From Escherichia phage CSP1C: 55,550 nucleotides of DNA. Under the pieces are notes generated by a model that saw nothing but the letters and a program-made list of their open reading frames with translations, was not told the origin of the DNA and ran no database searches. Shown one piece after another: positions 20,272 to 49,585 of the stretch. The DNA lies in sequence record PQ202980; one strand, given 5' to 3'. Position 1 is the stretch's first letter. Each line of letters starts with the position of its first letter. Position numbers and translations under genes: made by a program.

Positions 20272-22257
20272 TTAGGCATATCCCATGTCTTCGAGATACT
20301 TCTCTGCTTTAGCTATATAAGCATCATAATCTATGTCGTCCGGTATTTTATCCGGTAGCGTCATGATTGGGACACCTCCCGCGCTACCAGCTACACGGTT
20401 GCCCGAGTTAGCATAGATTATTTCGGGAGTTTCTTCATTGGTGCTTAAATACCAGCGTACAACCTTACCCAAAAATTCGCCATTCCATACCGCGCCGCCT
20501 TTCACCGCACGTAGGATAATGAATTTTCTAATATCGTTGCAATTGCGTATAGTACGAGAAACAGGCGTACCGTGGGCCAAACATTCACATACAGCTTCCA
20601 TAATAATTTCACCAGTACAGTTCTTTTGAAGCCCTGTTTTCGCGAACCAGCCTTTACGTTTAATTTCAACATTTCCTTCCTCATCAGGTTCTTTTACTGC
20701 AACATAGTTATTGACGTTAGCACTGTACAGCTTGTCATAGTAGTTGGATTCCATTTCAAAGCCTGTCACAGACTCCCACCACTTGATCATGTTATCAACG
20801 AAGTCCTGCATGTGGTCAGGATACTTAACCACAATACCATCCGTGTTAGCTGAAATTACTTTAACACCGTTCAGCTCAAACGCTTCAATGAGCATTAACA
20901 GCGATAGCTGTCCGGTGATAGTTACCTGTATCAATAATTGCGGCGCGTACAATACAGACCACATTGAACCCAATTTACCGAACGATCCGTTGATTACGAT
21001 CTTCAGCGTGTTGGCTGTGTTCTTGTCCCCTGAGTGCTTAGCCGCAATACGACGGTCTACAATGCTTTTATAAACACGAAGGAACGCTGGTCCCAACTGT
21101 TCGGGGTATAAGCCCTGATTAAGAATAATTGAAGGGTAATAGGACGTTACGTCAATGTCCCGCTTCTTAATACCGGGCTCTTTACCGTGACCAGCACACT
21201 CTTCGGAGCTATGCAAACCGCCAATACCCATACGGTACACACCGTCCGCAATCTTGATTTCAAGGCCTGTTAACGCTGGGGGCAAGCTAACGCCACCGTT
21301 ATCGCTAACAACAAAGCGGCAGTCCCGAACAATATCCAAAACACTATTCATCAGAGGTGTTTGAAAACGAATAAAGTCCGGTATGTTATACGCATACTTT
21401 GTTCCAGGATAAACTTGTGGACGCTGGGGACGCACACCAGTTAACGCTTGAATTTCGTGTTTAATTACGTCTTCTGCAATCTGCGCATCAGAACGTGAAC
21501 GCAGATCCACACCGTATTCTTGCGACATAATTTCACGAAGGTGCAAAGGCTCTTGCAATGCAATAAAACATTCTTCCGTCTGTACAAGGTCGTTAATACA
21601 GTACCAGCGTACAATCAACATCTGGTCCTGCGTCAACATTGTATTTGGCTTGAACGGTAAATCCTGCATACGGCGAGTATGTACACGTCCGCCATATTGT
21701 TTCAAACCACCGGACCCAGGCAGCACTTCCATAATATCAATGTGGTTAACGTTCTGCATACGCTTAAGGCGGTAACTCTTCAACACATCAGAAGGACGCC
21801 AGTCTTCAACGATTATCTTATCGGTTGCATCTTTAAGCTGAGCATTAGAGCAGCCGTTAAGCGCAAGCGTAGCAATTGGCATATCGTACCCGTTACCGTT
21901 AAAGCTTACGATAAGGAAGTTTGTCATTATCCAGTTAAGTAACAAGCAATTCAAACTACAACCGTGATACATTTCGAAGTAGACAACTTTCTTAGTCCGT
22001 ACTCCGCGAAACGCGATTAAGAAATAGTTTGGATAACATTCAATATCGTATACAAGCGGTTCGCGGTTAATCCATGCTTGAATAAGTTCGTCCTGCGTAT
22101 ACAGGTTGTATTGGAAGTTCCGCGCTTCCTCTAAGTTTGGCAGATAATCCGGACGTTCCCAAGTGCGCTCCGGCGGTAAACGCTTAACCTTTTCTTTCTT
22201 TGCTTTTGGCTCAGGCGGTAAGTCCTGCCAAAAGAAACCAATAGCATCTGTCCGCAT
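20272..22257 (-). CDS. DNA polymerase, family B
   Basis: Motifs DVTSYYPSIIL (motif A type), KIVINGSFGKLGS (motif B type), ISANTDGIVV (motif C type); ATG 22257 overlaps upstream stop. Confidence 0.8.
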   Translation of the reverse strand: MRTDAIGFFWQDLPPEPKAKKEKVKRLPPERTWERPDYLPNLEEARNFQYNLYTQDELIQAWINREPLVYDIECYPNYFLIAFRGVRTKKVVYFEMYHGCSLNCLLLNWIMTNFLIVSFNGNGYDMPIATLALNGCSNAQLKDATDKIIVEDWRPSDVLKSYRLKRMQNVNHIDIMEVLPGSGGLKQYGGRVHTRRMQDLPFKPNTMLTQDQMLIVRWYCINDLVQTEECFIALQEPLHLREIMSQEYGVDLRSRSDAQIAEDVIKHEIQALTGVRPQRPQVYPGTKYAYNIPDFIRFQTPLMNSVLDIVRDCRFVVSDNGGVSLPPALTGLEIKIADGVYRMGIGGLHSSEECAGHGKEPGIKKRDIDVTSYYPSIILNQGLYPEQLGPAFLRVYKSIVDRRIAAKHSGDKNTANTLKIVINGSFGKLGSMWSVLYAPQLLIQVTITGQLSLLMLIEAFELNGVKVISANTDGIVVKYPDHMQDFVDNMIKWWESVTGFEMESNYYDKLYSANVNNYVAVKEPDEEGNVEIKRKGWFAKTGLQKNCTGEIIMEAVCECLAHGTPVSRTIRNCNDIRKFIILRAVKGGAVWNGEFLGKVVRWYLSTNEETPEIIYANSGNRVAGSAGGVPIMTLPDKIPDDIDYDAYIAKAEKYLEDMGYA

Positions 22258-38285: not shown

Positions 38286-38348
38286 TTTTCTGTCCTCTGT
38301 TGTGTTTCGATGTATGTATAATAGCACATCCATGTGCTTAGGCAAGAC

Positions 38349-40552: not shown

Positions 40553-40793
40553 TTTACACCTCATAATATATACATAAACCAGAAATAACCAGCTACGAAA
40601 ATGATTCCAGCGAATAATTTTAAGATCTCGAACATTGTTCCCTCCGTTAACTTTATGCTGTAAGTATAGCAGGACTTGAGATGTATGCAACAACTTTAGA
40701 CTTGAAATGCATCTATAAAATAGCACGATTTGCCTTTACATCTGATCAGTCTAACTGTACTATTAACTCATAAGCAAAACGGAGGATTACAAA

Positions 40794-41018
40794 ATGGTCA
40801 TGCTGAATAAAGTATATAGCACAATGGGCGCGGATTATAAAGTTGTACGTCACCCGCGTACTGGCAAATTTGAAGCATATATCCGTCCAATGGGTGAAGG
40901 TTGGATGTATTACGGTACTTATGACGACGCTGAGCAAGCTTATGAAGAAGCGGAAAGTGCAGCGGAAGCATCCGAAATTATGGCAAGGTACGACGTCGAT
41001 GATTACTATCTCAACTAA
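40794..41018 (+). CDS. AP2-like DNA-binding domain protein
   Basis: YKVVRHPRTGKFEAYIRPMGEGWMYYGTYDDAEQA matches the AP2 pattern; SD GGAGG; lone + strand gene inside minus block. Confidence 0.5.
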   Translation: MVMLNKVYSTMGADYKVVRHPRTGKFEAYIRPMGEGWMYYGTYDDAEQAYEEAESAAEASEIMARYDVDDYYLN

Positions 41019-44441: not shown

Positions 44442-45105
44442 AGTTTTTGTAATCGCAAAACCTTCGCAAAACTTTGTCTTTCCTGCATTATATTAAACGA
44501 TAGTGCTAGTGGCCAGCATAGTGGCATCACCTCTTATAGTGCGCCGTTACTGGCTTCGCTATAGTGTGCCACTATACGCTCACTATACACTAATAACTAA
44601 TTTTATTTTGTTTAGTGGTAATAAAGTTTTGGGTTTTTGGGGGGGACCCCTATATATCCCGGGAAAAACAAAGAAATAGTAGTAGTAGTGAAAAACATAG
44701 TGAAATGCCACTATCCTCACTATCACTACCAATTTAATGTAATTCATGGGGGTGTCTATGTACCAAAAACCTAAAACTTTCAGTCAACAGGCTAAAAACG
44801 GATAGAAACTAAAAGTTAATAAGTAATAACATAAATATATATAAAATAAGGATTTATTAGTAATGTATATAGTACCTATTGATATTATTTGAATGTTTTT
44901 GGGTCATTGTTAAAAAGTCCCAAAACTCGCAAAACCTGAACGGATGCAGATCAAAAATGAGAAATCAAGTGCTTTTGAGGGAAATTTATTGAACTATTGT
45001 GATCGGAAGGTATATCAAGCTATAATGCGCTTAATCGCGGGATATTGGAGGAGGACTTTATTGCGCGGTTAACCGGACCAGTAGGAGGGCTGGCCCGGAA
45101 GTAGT
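44442..45105. promoter_or_regulatory. AT-rich repeat-dense non-coding region (candidate operator cluster / origin)
   Basis: About 660 bp without credible ORF; at least 6 CACTATA/TATAGTG heptamers, 3 copies of TCGCAAAAC, (AGT)4, a G7 run and a TATAAT-like box. Confidence 0.5.
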
Positions 45106-45819: not shown

Positions 45820-46434
45820 TTATGCGTCCAGGCCGTTATATTTGCGCCAGGCGTAGAACTGAATGGCTACCGTCGTCCCGTTGTAAGAAGGCATTGCAGC
45901 TTTCATCTCTTTCAGTTCCGGCGTGCGGCCCAGTTCCTTCAGAAGCTTGTCACCCATTGCCCACACTTCGGCAGTTTTTCCTTTCAGAGGCTTGCGAGCG
46001 CCATTTTTGAAATCACAGCGAGCAGCTTTTACATCTTGTTTTGGCGCGGCAGCTTTTGGCTCTTCAATTTTAATTTCAGAAACCGGCTTGGCAGCTTTTT
46101 CGTGTTTCATATCTTTCTCTTCCTCCTGCTCCAAAGCTTCGAGGCAGCTTTTGACGATTTCCGGATTTACCATCGGGCGCAGTACCGAGACGCTAGCAGC
46201 TGGCGCGGCGGTCGGTGCTGGGACTTTCTGCTCGGGCTTTTGAGCTTTTTCGTGATCGCGCAGCACCTGAAGGACTTCCTTTTCGACGATGTAAAAACCG
46301 ATATCGTCCTGATGGATTAACTGTTCGTGTGCGTCGCGTGCAACCTGACCCCAGCGAGTTTTAAGGGCGCGGCGTGCATTGGTCTTCATGGTGTAACGCA
46401 TTTTGTCCTGTTCGCGGTGAGTTACTTTAGACAT
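45820..46434 (-). CDS. hypothetical protein with Lys/Ala-rich linker and conserved C-terminal domain (paralogue of 29116..29919 C-terminus)
   Basis: ATG 46434 with SD AAAGGAG; C-terminal TVAIQFYAWRKYNG matches TVKTQYARWKKFNG. Confidence 0.5.
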   Translation of the reverse strand: MSKVTHREQDKMRYTMKTNARRALKTRWGQVARDAHEQLIHQDDIGFYIVEKEVLQVLRDHEKAQKPEQKVPAPTAAPAASVSVLRPMVNPEIVKSCLEALEQEEEKDMKHEKAAKPVSEIKIEEPKAAAPKQDVKAARCDFKNGARKPLKGKTAEVWAMGDKLLKELGRTPELKEMKAAMPSYNGTTVAIQFYAWRKYNGLDA

Positions 46435-46507
46435 GGTATAGCTCCTTTCGTTAAAGTTAGTTTGCTTATTATTGCCTACCGTGATAGTAGGCAAGGTATA
46501 AGAAAAC

Positions 46508-46756
46508 TTATTGCACGATTGCTACGAAATCGGCGGTTGCGATATCCATGCTTGCGAAAGCAACGATGCTATAGTCGGTGTCGTTTTCGGCGTTAAACGC
46601 TTTGAGGAACTGCTGTACCGCTGCTTTATGGTTAAGCGTTACGTCGATAGCATAGTCCCAGCTATAGACTTTGCGCTTGCCAAAACCTTTAACTGCAATG
46701 CGCGCGCCTTTGGTGTTAGTTGGTGCCAAAAATTTGGTGATGATAGAAGTAGCCAT
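46508..46756 (-). CDS. hypothetical protein
   Basis: 82 aa ORF preceded by a palindromic promoter-like element. Confidence 0.45.
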   Translation of the reverse strand: MATSIITKFLAPTNTKGARIAVKGFGKRKVYSWDYAIDVTLNHKAAVQQFLKAFNAENDTDYSIVAFASMDIATADFVAIVQ

Positions 46757-46829
46757 GATGTATATCCTCGTTTTGTTTAAGTTGACTTATTATTGCCCAG
46801 TCAGATCAACTAGGCAAGATATAAATCAC

Positions 46830-46979
46830 TTAATTTGTAATTTTATCTACACAGTAGTCAGCATCAAATTCCGCCGGACTAATGCCCAATTTGTCAATTG
46901 CAGCCGCTTCAGCTTCAACGAAATTGTTGGCTTCAATGAACGCGACGATAACACCGTATTTATTAATAACTTCGTACAT
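46830..46979 (-). CDS. hypothetical small protein (49 aa)
   Basis: ATG 46979; product MYEVINKYGVIVAFIEANNFVEAEAAAIDK resembles the adjacent small ORF. Confidence 0.35.
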   Translation of the reverse strand: MYEVINKYGVIVAFIEANNFVEAEAAAIDKLGISPAEFDADYCVDKITN

Positions 46980-46982
46980 GGT

Positions 46983-47138
46983 CTAGCCCTTAATTTGTAC
47001 CAAATCGTATTCCTTGTAAATTTCGCTAATGTACATATCGAACTGGCCCATTAAGAAGATTTCGGCCTCCTCCCAGCTTGGAGCAGATACATAACCAGCT
47101 ATTTTACCGGACGCGAGTTCCACTAATTTAAATTCCAT
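46983..47138 (-). CDS. hypothetical small protein (51 aa)
   Basis: ATG 47138 with SD AAGGGT; product MEFKLVELASGKIAGYVSAPSWEEAEIFLMG. Confidence 0.4.
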   Translation of the reverse strand: MEFKLVELASGKIAGYVSAPSWEEAEIFLMGQFDMYISEIYKEYDLVQIKG

Positions 47139-47350
47139 GATGCAACCCTTAATGTGGTTAAGCAGTATTGCTTTGTTGAAGTAATAATAGCCTTGCATCG
47201 TGATATTGAATAGGCCAAAAGTGCTATTTTGATATTGTTTTGCATCTAGTGAAAATTATGCTTGCCCTGCATGTTTAGCACAAACGGCCTAATTAACATC
47301 ACATCATCTGGAGTATTCGCGCGGGCGCACACATGCTTATAAGGTGGTGC

Positions 47351-47466
47351 CGGATCGACCAGGTGGGAGCGGTGCACAGGATCGACCAGGGGCATCCGGC
47401 GCCCTGCGTGCGCGGAGCCTACCAGGTGGAAGCAGCTCCTGCGTGTGCCGGAAATACCAGGGGCGC
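47351..47466. repeat. GC-rich degenerate direct repeats containing ACCAGG(T)GG (4 copies)
   Basis: ACCAGG cores at 47358, 47385, 47421 and 47456, each in a related 15-20 nt context, inside an otherwise AT-rich intergenic region. Confidence 0.55.
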
Positions 47467-47516
47467 GCGAGCCCATGCACTTTACAAAATATTTTTATAA
47501 AAAGTGCAAAAAGGTG

Positions 47517-47560
47517 TAGACACATGATCGGTCTAGCACTACTATATACACATACCGCAA
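47517..47560 (+). promoter_or_regulatory. promoter/operator-like element TAGACACATGATCGGTCTAG
   Basis: Palindromic AGAC-N-GTCT element with GATC core about 60 nt upstream of the ATG at 47597; near-identical copy at 48357. Confidence 0.45.
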
Positions 47561-47596
47561 GGGTACTACAAATTAACTAATTCACGGGGGTACAAA

Positions 47597-47860
47597 ATGG
47601 TCCGCATCCTGGAACGTTATAAAAACGAAGCTACTGGCGCTATTGCATTCAAACGTATGTTAGTAAAACAAATCGACGGTTTATACCGTGTTGTTAAAGA
47701 AGTCGATTACGGCAACGGCGCAGGGGTGAGCACCACTATCGTCCCGGGCATTAAAGCGTATAAAACTTTAAAAGGTGCCGAGAAAGCCTTAGCCGCCTGG
47801 AAACCTGCTCGTTATCAAATGTCTCGTGTCGAAGGGCTTATGCAGGAAGGTAAAATCTAA
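47597..47860 (+). CDS. hypothetical protein
   Basis: 87 aa, first gene of the + strand block. Confidence 0.5.
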   Translation: MVRILERYKNEATGAIAFKRMLVKQIDGLYRVVKEVDYGNGAGVSTTIVPGIKAYKTLKGAEKALAAWKPARYQMSRVEGLMQEGKI

Positions 47861-47925
47861 GTTTGTTTATACAATGGGCATTAATACAGTGCCCATTAAG
47901 CTAACTAATCATATCGAGGTGTATT

Positions 47926-48210
47926 ATGTCCATCGTTACTATGTCGTTCTTCGACCATTGCAATAACGAAAAACAAATTATTGTTAACCTGCAAAAAGGG
48001 CTGGTTATCGCACGCAATGCTAACCGCCAATGCATCGCGCTAACCGATTTTGCTTTCCGCCTTAACGTGGACAACACCACCGCCAAAAATATCGTTCACG
48101 ATACAGCGATGGAAGCCGCTCATGCTGCGAAGGATAAAGGTATCCGCGCAGCACGCGAAATCATGCACAAAGCGCTCGGCATCACGTTCTTCGTTGGCAT
48201 TAAGGGGTAA
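47926..48210 (+). CDS. hypothetical protein
   Basis: 94 aa ORF. Confidence 0.45.
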   Translation: MSIVTMSFFDHCNNEKQIIVNLQKGLVIARNANRQCIALTDFAFRLNVDNTTAKNIVHDTAMEAAHAAKDKGIRAAREIMHKALGITFFVGIKG

Positions 48211-48215
48211 CTACT

Positions 48216-48359
48216 ATGGCACGCAAATACTCGCTTACACGCGCACAGCACGCGTTATTATTGCAGGTTATGCGCATGAAGTACGAAAAGACTACATGGG
48301 CGCAAGCCATGCAGACAGGGCGCGAGTTCTACGCGCAATTAATAGCACAAAATGCCTAG
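48216..48359 (+). CDS. hypothetical small protein (47 aa)
   Basis: ATG 48216 six nt after the upstream stop; product MARKYSLTRAQHALLLQVMRMKYEK. Confidence 0.35.
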   Translation: MARKYSLTRAQHALLLQVMRMKYEKTTWAQAMQTGREFYAQLIAQNA

Positions 48360-48400
48360 ACAACATGATCGGTCTGGTGGATACTACACACATCAACCAA
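48357..48400 (+). promoter_or_regulatory. second copy of TAGACA-CATGATCGGTCT promoter/operator-like element
   Basis: TAGACAACATGATCGGTCTGG about 60 nt upstream of the ATG at 48418. Confidence 0.45.
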
Positions 48401-48417
48401 ACAACGGGGTAAACAAA

Positions 48418-48657
48418 ATGCGTAGTTTCAAATGTGTAAGCGTAAACGATAATGCTAAGGCTAGTGCTAAGGGTCTGTTCACAGTAGGTAAAGTGTATGA
48501 CTTCAACATGGAAAGTTATATACACATAACCCTCACGGGCGTAATGTTCGGCGACGTTGGTGCTGTACGCTGCGATTTAAACAAGTACACGGAAAAGGAA
48601 TATGCTCTTATCAGCCGCTACACGGGCGAGCCGTTAGCTGTGTTCCATGCAGCTTAA
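48418..48657 (+). CDS. hypothetical protein
   Basis: 79 aa from ATG 48418; the track's upstream extension is rejected. Confidence 0.45.
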   Translation: MRSFKCVSVNDNAKASAKGLFTVGKVYDFNMESYIHITLTGVMFGDVGAVRCDLNKYTEKEYALISRYTGEPLAVFHAA

Positions 48658-48729
48658 GCTATAACGCACACAGCGCCACGCTAGCGAGCTAATGTACATA
48701 GGCAATGGTAATGCATTAGCTCGGGCGAA

Positions 48730-48920
48730 ACAGGCGCACAGCGTCGCGCACAGCTCGCACAGCGCACACCGACCCACGCAGGCCCAGCCGCGCGACCCGA
48801 CCCATCCTTTTCCAGGTACTTGGAGCGCCGGGGCGTGCCCTGTCCATCCTGATAGTAAGTGCTTGTCTAAATCTCACCCATCACATAGCCTATCCACCTA
48901 CATCCATGACCCCACCTACC
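48730..48920. repeat. GC-rich short tandem repeats (CGCACAGC x3; CCACCTAC x2)
   Basis: gcgcacagcgtcgcgcacagctcgcacagcgcacacc and ccacctacatccatgaccccacctacc within a 430 bp gene-free interval. Confidence 0.5.
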
Positions 48921-49091
48921 TTCTTTTTGAATATATTGCGCTCATCCTTTCTAAATATATGGATTTTGGTAGTAAATTCTGAGTCGTCAACGTATAATTC
49001 GTCTTGTAGCTGCTCCATAGCTACCATCTTTAAGCGGATGCAACCAATTTCTATCAATTCTTACCAGTTTTACAGCATCAAGGAGGTATTT

Positions 49092-49343
49092 ATGTGCGAC
49101 TCCAGTGCAAGCACCACGACAAACTCCTCCAGCAATGTGGTTACAGAGGTAAATGCAATGCGATTAGGTCCATATCGCGGCTATTATGGTCGTGCTGCAT
49201 GGAATGACGCTACTCAACGTTTTGAAGGCTGGATTATCTGCCCGGAACGTGTTAAATTTCACTCCGTAAAAGAGAAAAATATCGTTCTTAATTTTCAAAA
49301 ATGTGTCACTAAATATGTAGAGGAGCAAGAAGAATGCGTGTAG
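49092..49343 (+). CDS. hypothetical protein
   Basis: 83 aa from ATG 49092 with strong SD AAGGAGG. Confidence 0.45.
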   Translation: MCDSSASTTTNSSSNVVTEVNAMRLGPYRGYYGRAAWNDATQRFEGWIICPERVKFHSVKEKNIVLNFQKCVTKYVEEQEECV

Positions 49344-49585
49344 GGGAGGGTGAAAAGGTTGTTAACTATTTCGGGACTCAGGTTATAGTACCTGCCTGGG
49401 TTAATTGGCTCGCGGTTGATAAATGTGAAGAGCTCTATGCTTACGAAAACGAGCCTTATATAGACGAATGCGACGATTACGACAAATGGTATGAGGATAC
49501 GGGTAAATCCATCTTTATTGGCGAGTTTCCTTTCGAAGAAGGTTGTTGGGTAAATTCTTTAGTTAATGTTAGTTCGGAGGCTTAA
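49334..49585 (+). CDS. hypothetical protein, member of 3-copy paralogous family
   Basis: VPAWVNWLAVDKCEELYAYENEPY matches ORFs 50172 and 28040. Confidence 0.45.
   Translation: MRVGEGEKVVNYFGTQVIVPAWVNWLAVDKCEELYAYENEPYIDECDDYDKWYEDTGKSIFIGEFPFEEGCWVNSLVNVSSEA

Follow-up and report, generated by a model that had tools for sequence, protein, structure and literature searches.

Probable sigma-70-type promoters at a repeated element in the genome of Escherichia phage CSP1C

In Escherichia phage CSP1C (sequence record PQ202980; 55,550 nt, the whole of which is called the window here), a short sequence beginning with TAGACA occurs twice on the plus strand in nearly identical form, at 47517-47534 and 48357-48375. 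An earlier note on this DNA took it for a palindromic promoter or operator element shared by two plus-strand genes. What is this element, and which of its parts are under constraint? Comparison with related phages indicates that in both places it most probably consists of the -35 hexamer and the promoter-proximal two thirds of the spacer of a host-type (sigma-70) promoter; the two promoters are paralogous and are designated c1 and c2.

Anatomy and conservation of the two copies

The c1 copy reads TAGACACATGATCGGTCT and the c2 copy reads TAGACAACATGATCGGTCT, with one A more after TAGACA. They have in common the 13-mer ACATGATCGGTCT (47522-47534 in c1, 48363-48375 in c2), which occurs exactly twice when both strands of the window are searched; 0.00 occurrences were expected from 100 dinucleotide shuffles of the window. 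The near-identical 19-20-mers described earlier were borne out in sequence and coordinates, as was their placement upstream of two plus-strand genes. c1 precedes ATG 47597, which lies 80 nt from the start of the element and 62 nt from its end, and c2 precedes ATG 48418, 61 nt from the start of the element. c1 is located in the divergent intergenic region between leftward CSP1_052 and rightward CSP1_051, in indel-rich, non-coding DNA, and c2 between CSP1_049 and CSP1_048. The components of the two promoters are as follows.

47486-47516 (+): A/T-rich, UP-element-like tract upstream of c1, with A-tracts at about -53 to -49 and -44 to -40 from the predicted start
47517-47522 (+): c1 -35 hexamer TAGACA (5/6 match to TTGACA), the first six bases of the reported element
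47523-47539 (+): c1 spacer CATGATCGGTCTAGCAC, 17 nt, with the reported 12-mer and GATC
47540-47545 (+): c1 -10 hexamer TACTAT
47552-47596 (+): predicted c1 start A47552, preceded by C, and 45-nt leader to ATG 47597
47597-47860 (+): CSP1_051, 87 aa, PHROG 27467, function unknown; first gene that c1 would serve
48343-48356 (+): TAGCAC-N5-GCC box (TAGCACAAAATGCC) adjoining the c2 -35, at -49 to -36; overlaps the last CSP1_049 codons
48357-48362 (+): c2 -35 hexamer TAGACA, which begins with the stop codon TAG of CSP1_049 (48216-48359)
48363-48379 (+): c2 spacer ACATGATCGGTCTGGTG, 17 nt, with the reported 12-mer
48380-48385 (+): c2 -10 hexamer GATACT
48392-48417 (+): predicted c2 start A48392, with conserved C-1/A+1, and 26-nt leader to ATG 48418
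48418-48657 (+): CSP1_048, 79 aa, function unknown; gene that c2 would serve

A consensus scan called TAGACA/17/TACTAT at c1 and TAGACA/17/GATACT at c2. TACTAT and GATACT each match TATAAT at 4/6 positions, with A2 and T6 both present. Seven nucleotides beyond each -10 lies an A preceded by C (A47552 and A48392), a context that is usual for transcription start sites. The ATG of CSP1_051 is preceded by a GGGGG Shine-Dalgarno sequence, and that of CSP1_048 by one of the same type.

CSP1C is a clear-plaque mutant of phage CSP1 (60,222-nt genome) with a 4,672-bp deletion (PMC13577005). The window is probably the complete CSP1C genome, and its scans are thus genome-wide. Region 46500-49500 is 100% identical to the reverse strand of the Cronobacter phage CSP1 record (KY982929) and shares 90-97% identity with Escherichia phages CAjan, Greed, KS_A8 and ~30 others, all of them members of Seuratvirus, subfamily Queuovirinae. 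A 1-nt offset relative to KY982929 coordinates, arising between 41,000 and 46,500, fits the point indels reported for CSP1C. The comparison drew on homologous 6-kb stretches from 16 GenBank relatives and from three IMG/VR contigs, and hexamer and spacing conservation was scored across 18 related genomes or contigs. A scan of IMG/VR with the 18-mer returned three Seuratvirus contigs only; the 14-mer AAAAGGTGTAGACA was non-specific there (120+ unrelated contigs).

The c1 -35 hexamer TAGACA was invariant in 10/10 distinct CSP1-type sequences and in a diverged, Seurat-type allele, and the -10 hexamer TACTAT in all c1 variants of both types. Among CSP1-type orthologues the spacer varies at 6 of its 17 columns and has a constant length of 17 nt; its variants are CATGATCGGTCTAGCAC; TATGATCAGTCTAGCAC; TATGATCAATCTAACCC and TATGATCAATCTAACCA; CATGATCGATCTAGCGC; and TATGATCGGTCTAGCAT. 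The diverged allele, present in Seurat, VogelGryff and WildeMaa, differs in its upstream sequence, its downstream sequence and its spacer (TAGATCAAGTCATGTCG), yet it still reads TAGACA-17-TACTAT, the 17 nt being retained through compensating indels. The A/T-rich tract upstream of c1 is nearly invariant among 14 relatives. At -60 to -40 c1 reads TTTTTATAAAAAGTGCAAAAA, and c2 has AATAGCACAAAATGCC in its place; position and composition suggest an UP-element role for the c1 tract. WildeMaa and SA80RD have a ~270-nt leader, purine- and GC-rich, between c1 and the first ATG. An Rfam search of the long WildeMaa leader at a relaxed threshold gave no match beyond a chance match to a small Cajal body-specific RNA (scaRNA), far below the gathering score.

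The pattern at c2 is similar: relatives read TAG(A/G)CA-17-(G/C)ATAMT with almost wholly different spacers. TAGACA is found in 9/10 distinct c2 variants and TAGGCA in STP-SP5. The spacer, always 17 nt, is replaced by TACGATAAGTCTTAGGT in yong3, CACGATACATCTAATGC in STP-SP5 and CACGATGCGTCTAGTGC in an IMG/VR contig. The -10 hexamer is CATAAT in the diverged relatives yong3 and STP-SP5 and in one metagenome contig; A2 is present in 9/10 variants and T6 in 10/10. The long open reading frame (ORF) that runs through c2 from ATG 48352 is cut by stops after 10-42 codons in Greed, slur01, Seurat, VogelGryff, yong3 and an IMG/VR contig. Because the extended frame is interrupted in these six relatives, c2 is non-coding, and a coding reading is rejected.

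Both copies therefore have a -35 hexamer, a -10 hexamer, an evolutionarily kept 17-nt spacer, and a location and orientation upstream of a gene. Hexamers and spacing that stay constant around a free spacer are the mark of a sigma-70 promoter; an operator within the spacer would show the reverse. Anatomy and comparison support the shared promoter proposed in the earlier note.

According to the CSP1 annotation, two divergent arms meet in a 400-bp non-coding region (47199-47596). The leftward arm carries small genes, primase/helicase, replication genes, a 7-deazaguanine cluster and DNA polymerase; the rightward arm carries ~18 small genes, followed by lysis, terminase and structural genes. The annotation lists no RNA polymerase gene anywhere in the CSP1 genome. 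The E. coli or Cronobacter RNA polymerase holoenzyme (E-sigma70) would recognise the c1 and c2 hexamers directly. c1 would open the rightward transcription unit at about A47552, within the divergent control region, and c2 would restart transcription at about A48392 for the next cassette, as an internal booster. The identical 13-mer would reflect common descent through duplication of a promoter core rather than a protein-binding dyad. We infer initiation by RNA polymerase at c1 and c2, the exact start sites and the early timing from the sequences; early timing is plausible.

A wider promoter family and its TAGCAC-N5-GCC box

A repeat search gave a third, degenerate relative at 47276, which led to a TAGCAC-N5-GCC box located directly upstream of the -35 hexamer, at -49 to -36. 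The window has exactly four copies of the box, versus 0.33 expected, and no shuffle reached four. All four are at promoter-like positions: 40721-40734 (+), 47213-47226 (-), 47276-47289 (+) and 48343-48356 (+). The second and third form an inverted pair 49 bp apart. Among the paralogous promoters the box is conserved better than the -35 hexamer itself. Read as the 16-mer TAGCACnnnnTGCCTA, it is an imperfect dyad centred at -41.5. In CSP1-type c1, an A/T-rich tract replaces the box.

A family profile (hidden Markov model) was built from 17 distinct variants from all genomes. Its information content is high in AAATAGCAC..GCCTA, the CA of the -35, the -10 and C-1/A+1, and there is almost none in the spacer; C-1/A+1 lies exactly 7 nt after the -10 in 17/17 variants. 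The profile recovered the promoters PL, P62, c2, c1 and P68 in the window, each correctly oriented before a gene, with E values of 2e-10 for c2 and 1e-4 for c1 (from the -35 onward). c1 and c2 thus belong to a family of at least five predicted promoters in this genome. The other members and relatives detailed here are as follows.

47177-47226 (-): PL, leftward family promoter; best profile match (E 2.7e-13), conserved in all relatives; box TAGCACTTTTGGCC 47226-47213, -35 TATTCA 47212-47207, 17-nt spacer, -10 TATTAT 47189-47184, predicted +1 A47177
40721-40770 (+): P62, family promoter (E 5e-12) preceding the lone plus-strand gene 40794-41018; box TAGCACGATTTGCC, -35 TTTACA 40735-40740, spacer TCTGATCAGTCTAACTG, -10 TACTAT 40758-40763, predicted +1 A40770
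47276-47295 (+): decayed or partial family copy; box TAGCACAAACGGCC, then TAATTA, with GTATTC at 17 nt and no usable -10; E 0.025 for the upstream half only, conserved in relatives
38311-38345 (-): weaker family-like leftward promoter TTGCCT-16-TATTAT, predicted +1 A38311 (E 0.0018), upstream of ATG 38285

The spacer core TGATCAGTCTA of P62 is common to c1, and TGATCNGTCTA is found only at c1 and P62 (0.10 expected). The reported 12-mer accordingly reads as one variant of a spacer sequence common to the rightward promoters c1, c2 and P62. A genome-wide motif scan, which the earlier note had proposed as a check for further copies, had a divided outcome. No additional copy of the 18-mer was found in the window at up to three mismatches, and the six extra matches to the 12-mer at two mismatches (2.8 expected) look like chance; a related spacer, TGATCAGTCTA, is present in the third promoter at 40735-40763. 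The conserved motif that recurs is the TAGCAC-N5-GCC box upstream of the -35, not the reported 12-mer.

Two candidates were rejected. TAGACA-18-TAAAGT at 46428-46457 (+) owes its conservation solely to leftward CSP1_055, whose start codon and ribosome-binding site (ATGTCTAAAG...) it represents in reverse complement, and it should be flagged as a false positive in motif scans. A sigma-54 interpretation of the box (by comparison with TGGCAC-N5-TTGC, in which GG at -24 and GC at -12 are 10 nt apart) fails because the box lacks GG and its G and GC stand 2 nt too close together. The box is also followed by a sigma-70-like -35/-10 pair.

The annotated start of CSP1_052, ATG 47198 (-), lies inside the PL spacer, upstream of the predicted PL start A47177. 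An in-frame ATG at 47138 with an AAGGG Shine-Dalgarno sequence is a likelier start, giving 50 aa as annotated in WildeMaa and phiG7.

Two other repeat regions were observed nearby. Four GC-rich direct repeats containing ACCAGG(T/G)GG, spaced by 27, 36 and 35 nt, occupy 47347-47469 (+), between the decayed box and c1. The copy number of this block varies among relatives, and it is absent from yong3, phiG7, slur01, KS_A3, SA80RD and one contig. The CAjan annotation has an ORF across it that is probably spurious. Folded as RNA, region 47310-47490 gave z scores of -1.4 (+) and +0.1 (-), which are not compelling. CSP1_059 and the primase-helicase operon are preceded by 636 bp of A/T-rich intergenic DNA (44470-45105) with dense TATAGTG/CACTATA repeats in both orientations and an 18-nt inverted repeat of 94% identity; it looks like an iteron-type replication origin. 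Leftward promoter candidates in this region are TGGCCA-17-TATAAT (44515-44487) and TAGACA-16-TAAATT (44758-44731).

Alternative readings of the element

Several points weigh against interpreting c1 and c2 as sigma-70-type promoters. Matches to the hexamers at 9/12 positions are not enriched in 11.5 kb (27 versus 20.5 +/- 5.8 in shuffles), and because they are no commoner than in shuffles, the promoter case rests on comparative evidence. The relatives compared are close (~90-97% identity), so that part of the invariance is mere shared ancestry. One metagenome contig has GGTACT as the c2 -10, with the critical A2 lost, and c2 is absent from CAjan-type genomes and hence dispensable. Plain sigma-70 recognition leaves unexplained the invariance of ATGATC and TCTA in CSP1-type c1 and the presence of TGATCrGTCTA in both c1 and P62. 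No transcription start data for any Seuratvirus were found in the searchable literature; the papers on CSP1 lysis, phage 9g, CAjan modification and phiC120 give no promoter mapping for this region.

The alternative that survives best is a regulatory site within the promoter: a phage protein would bind (C/T)ATGATCrrTCT(A) of c1, c2 and P62 and switch them together. The identity of the 13-mer in c1 and c2, the recurrence of TGATCNGTCTA solely in c1 and P62, the rightward orientation of all three promoters and the invariant ATGATC and TCTA of the c1 orthologues are all in its favour. Palindromic operators that overlap promoters are well known from lambda OR/OL and LexA boxes, and many repressors bind between -35 and -10, where c1 and c2 likewise have a short inverted repeat. 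The inverted repeat AGAC...GTCT reported earlier is indeed present in both copies; however, it is minimal, with 5-bp arms (TAGAC/GTCTA) flanking 9 nt in c1 and 4-bp arms (AGAC/GTCT) flanking 10 nt in c2, and the GATC described as its core is off-centre in both. c1 and c2 are homologous and so are not independent evidence for a dyad.

Conservation argues against such a site, which would call for a conserved dyad with fixed arm spacing. The 12-mer falls in the least conserved stretch of the promoter. The GTCT arm is kept in 3/12 c1 spacer variants and 3/4 c2 spacer variants, and in 7 of the 14 CSP1-type c1 genomes compared GTCT has become ATCT (AATCT in six, GATCT in SA80RD). c1 reads TATGATCAATCT or CATGATCGATCT in many genomes, and c2 reads TACGATAAGTCT, CACGATACATCT or CACGATGCGTCT in others. 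From copy to copy, the motif moves by 1-2 nt against the hexamers. The two spacers of one genome also change independently of each other: SeppeHuegi combines TATGATCAATCT in c1 with CATGATCGGTCT in c2. The palindromic operator of the earlier note was not upheld, and we consider a common regulatory site in the spacers quite unlikely.

A candidate binder for such a site is the predicted AP2-like 74-aa product of 40794-41018 (+). This core gene product (at least 95.9% identity in 33 records) was matched by phmmer to multi-AP2-domain proteins (E 1.3e-9); it also has a weak direct match to Pfam AP2 and weak PDB matches to WRI1 and ERF1. Its AlphaFold model has three strands and a helix (predicted local distance difference test score 82.5); a Foldseek search with the model was uninformative. 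No evidence was found tying this protein to the spacer motif or the box, and Pfam and PHROG scans of 30 neighbouring small proteins revealed no helix-turn-helix, Cro or CI-like regulator. It is conceivable, if unlikely, that the Seuratvirus promoters form a small regulon wired by this AP2-fold protein, itself driven from P62, which would time the passage from immediate-early to later transcription. Its site might be the TAGCAC-N5-GCC box, present at PL, c2, P62 and the Seurat-type PR1, whose 16-mer centre at -41.5 would be a class II activator position; alternatively, it might be the TGATCrGTCT motif in the spacers of c1, c2 and P62, which all point rightward. Immediate-early transcription would then come from c1, which lacks the box and has the UP-like tract.

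Sensitivity to Dam methylation or base modification is a very unlikely explanation. It supposes that the spacer GATC or guanines in GA context make promoter strength depend on the state of the DNA, incoming or replicated. In c1, c2 and P62 the -35 is followed by GATC at a distance of 3-5 nt, and 9/12 c1 spacer variants retain it, the diverged Seurat-type allele included. The CSP1 7-deazaguanine cluster comprises FolE, QueD, QueE, QueC and a DpdA-like transglycosylase, and Hutinet et al. point to possible interference of such bases with sigma and transcription factors (PMC6884629). However, GATC is not rare in this genome (186 sites versus 152 expected), is lost in 3/4 c2 spacer variants (GATA, GATA, GATG) and is absent from PL and P68; GA occurs within any TTGACA-like -35 and so is not specific to the element. 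The GA-context guanines at c1 are 47519 and 47526 (top strand) and 47529 and 47533 (bottom strand), with equivalents in c2; they are the G of the -35 TAGACA, both GATC guanines and the G of bottom-strand AGACC. In CAjan, preQ0 replaces G in GA and GGC contexts (PMC7544227). If CSP1 modifies its DNA like CAjan, the modification would be expected in virion DNA at the -35 G and at both GATC guanines.

The element might also be a recombination linker devoid of promoter activity, a boundary sequence that persists only by mediating cassette exchange. BLAST of 46800-49400 against the relatives placed homology breakpoints close to both copies. In 10 genomes the homology stops at 47578, within the c1 leader; in SA80RD it stops at 47548, directly after the c1 -10; and in six genomes it stops at 48420, at the ATG served by c2, and a different gene follows. 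In SA80RD, c1 is chimeric: its upstream half and spacer are of the CSP1 type, its downstream half is of the WildeMaa type, and the crossover falls at TACTATATA. The repeated promoter thus coincides with mosaic junctions, and because the breakpoints lie just downstream and different genes follow in different genomes, the promoters are at the 5' edges of exchangeable small-gene cassettes. Nothing in a pure linker, however, calls for hexamers that stay invariant, for a spacing held at 17 nt while the spacer is free, for conserved C-1/A+1 or for a consistent orientation before genes, and we regard this explanation as highly improbable. An element can be linker and promoter at once, and the best explanation already includes the linker role.

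The last alternative, in which the AGAC...GTCT repeat would form a DNA or RNA hairpin acting as a terminator, processing site or single-strand promoter, has in its favour the 4-5 bp inverted repeat of both copies and is effectively refuted by a folding energy of only -1.7 to -3.5 kcal/mol (z -0.1 to -2.0) and by unconserved arms, so that it is extremely unlikely. The loops are 9-10 nt with no T-run after them, neither element has the stable G+C-rich stem of an N4-type hairpin promoter or intrinsic terminator, neither was called as a terminator, and no significant hairpin was found at or next to them. An Rfam search of 46900-48700 at a relaxed threshold gave no match save a chance sub-threshold scaRNA match.

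Relation to known phage promoters and significance

As sigma-70-type promoters, c1 and c2 are an ordinary feature of a very well-known kind. Lytic and temperate coliphages use sigma-70 promoters as early promoters, for example lambda PL/PR, T7 A1-A3 and T5 N25. c1 and c2 resemble these in their -35 (one mismatch from TTGACA), 17-nt spacer, A2 and T6 of the -10, purine start after a pyrimidine ~7 nt downstream, and position at the head of gene clusters that host RNA polymerase would transcribe, and c1 also in its A/T-rich upstream tract. Unlike the classical examples, they are predicted from sequence, and their -10 hexamers match at only 4/6 positions. In most members of the family, the position that would be purely A/T in a classical UP element is taken by the TAGCAC-N5-GCC box, which contains GC.

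T4-like phages have early promoters with an extended consensus and cassette boundaries marked by promoter-early stem-loops. The paralogous Seuratvirus promoters similarly show conservation that extends far past the hexamers, recur among the small ORFs of a hyperplastic region and are located at mosaic junctions. They differ in having no convincing stem-loop and unrelated sequences, and CSP1 is a siphovirus with a 60-kb genome.

For phage 9g of the sister genus Nonagvirus, divergent Pl/Pr promoters were predicted by Kulikov et al. 2014 (PMC4276943). In 9g, as in CSP1, one long non-coding region with oppositely oriented promoters separates a replication/modification arm from an arm of small, lysis and structural genes, and ATACCAGG repeats are found in the divergent region of both genera. 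However, the 9g Pl/Pr are BPROM predictions with other sequences, and neither the family profile nor the TAGCAC box had a match in 9g. The equivalent divergent region of 9g contains three ATACCAGGT repeats (21250-21330), near the reported physical genome end.

These results give concrete positions for two predicted host-type promoters and their starts in Seuratvirus, a genus used in the BASEL collection and in work on 7-deazaguanine DNA modification, and the promoter cores mark the edges of exchangeable early-gene cassettes. A promoter family of five to six members with an unusual conserved TAGCAC-N5-GCC box and a candidate AP2-type regulator are modestly useful by-products. How far sigma factors tolerate such bases is a general question raised by Hutinet et al. 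(PMC6884629). If CSP1 DNA is modified as in CAjan, c1 and c2 would be transcribed from 7-deazaguanine-modified DNA on entry, and they would offer a convenient natural test of the tolerance of sigma-70 for 7-deazaguanine in the -35 hexamer.

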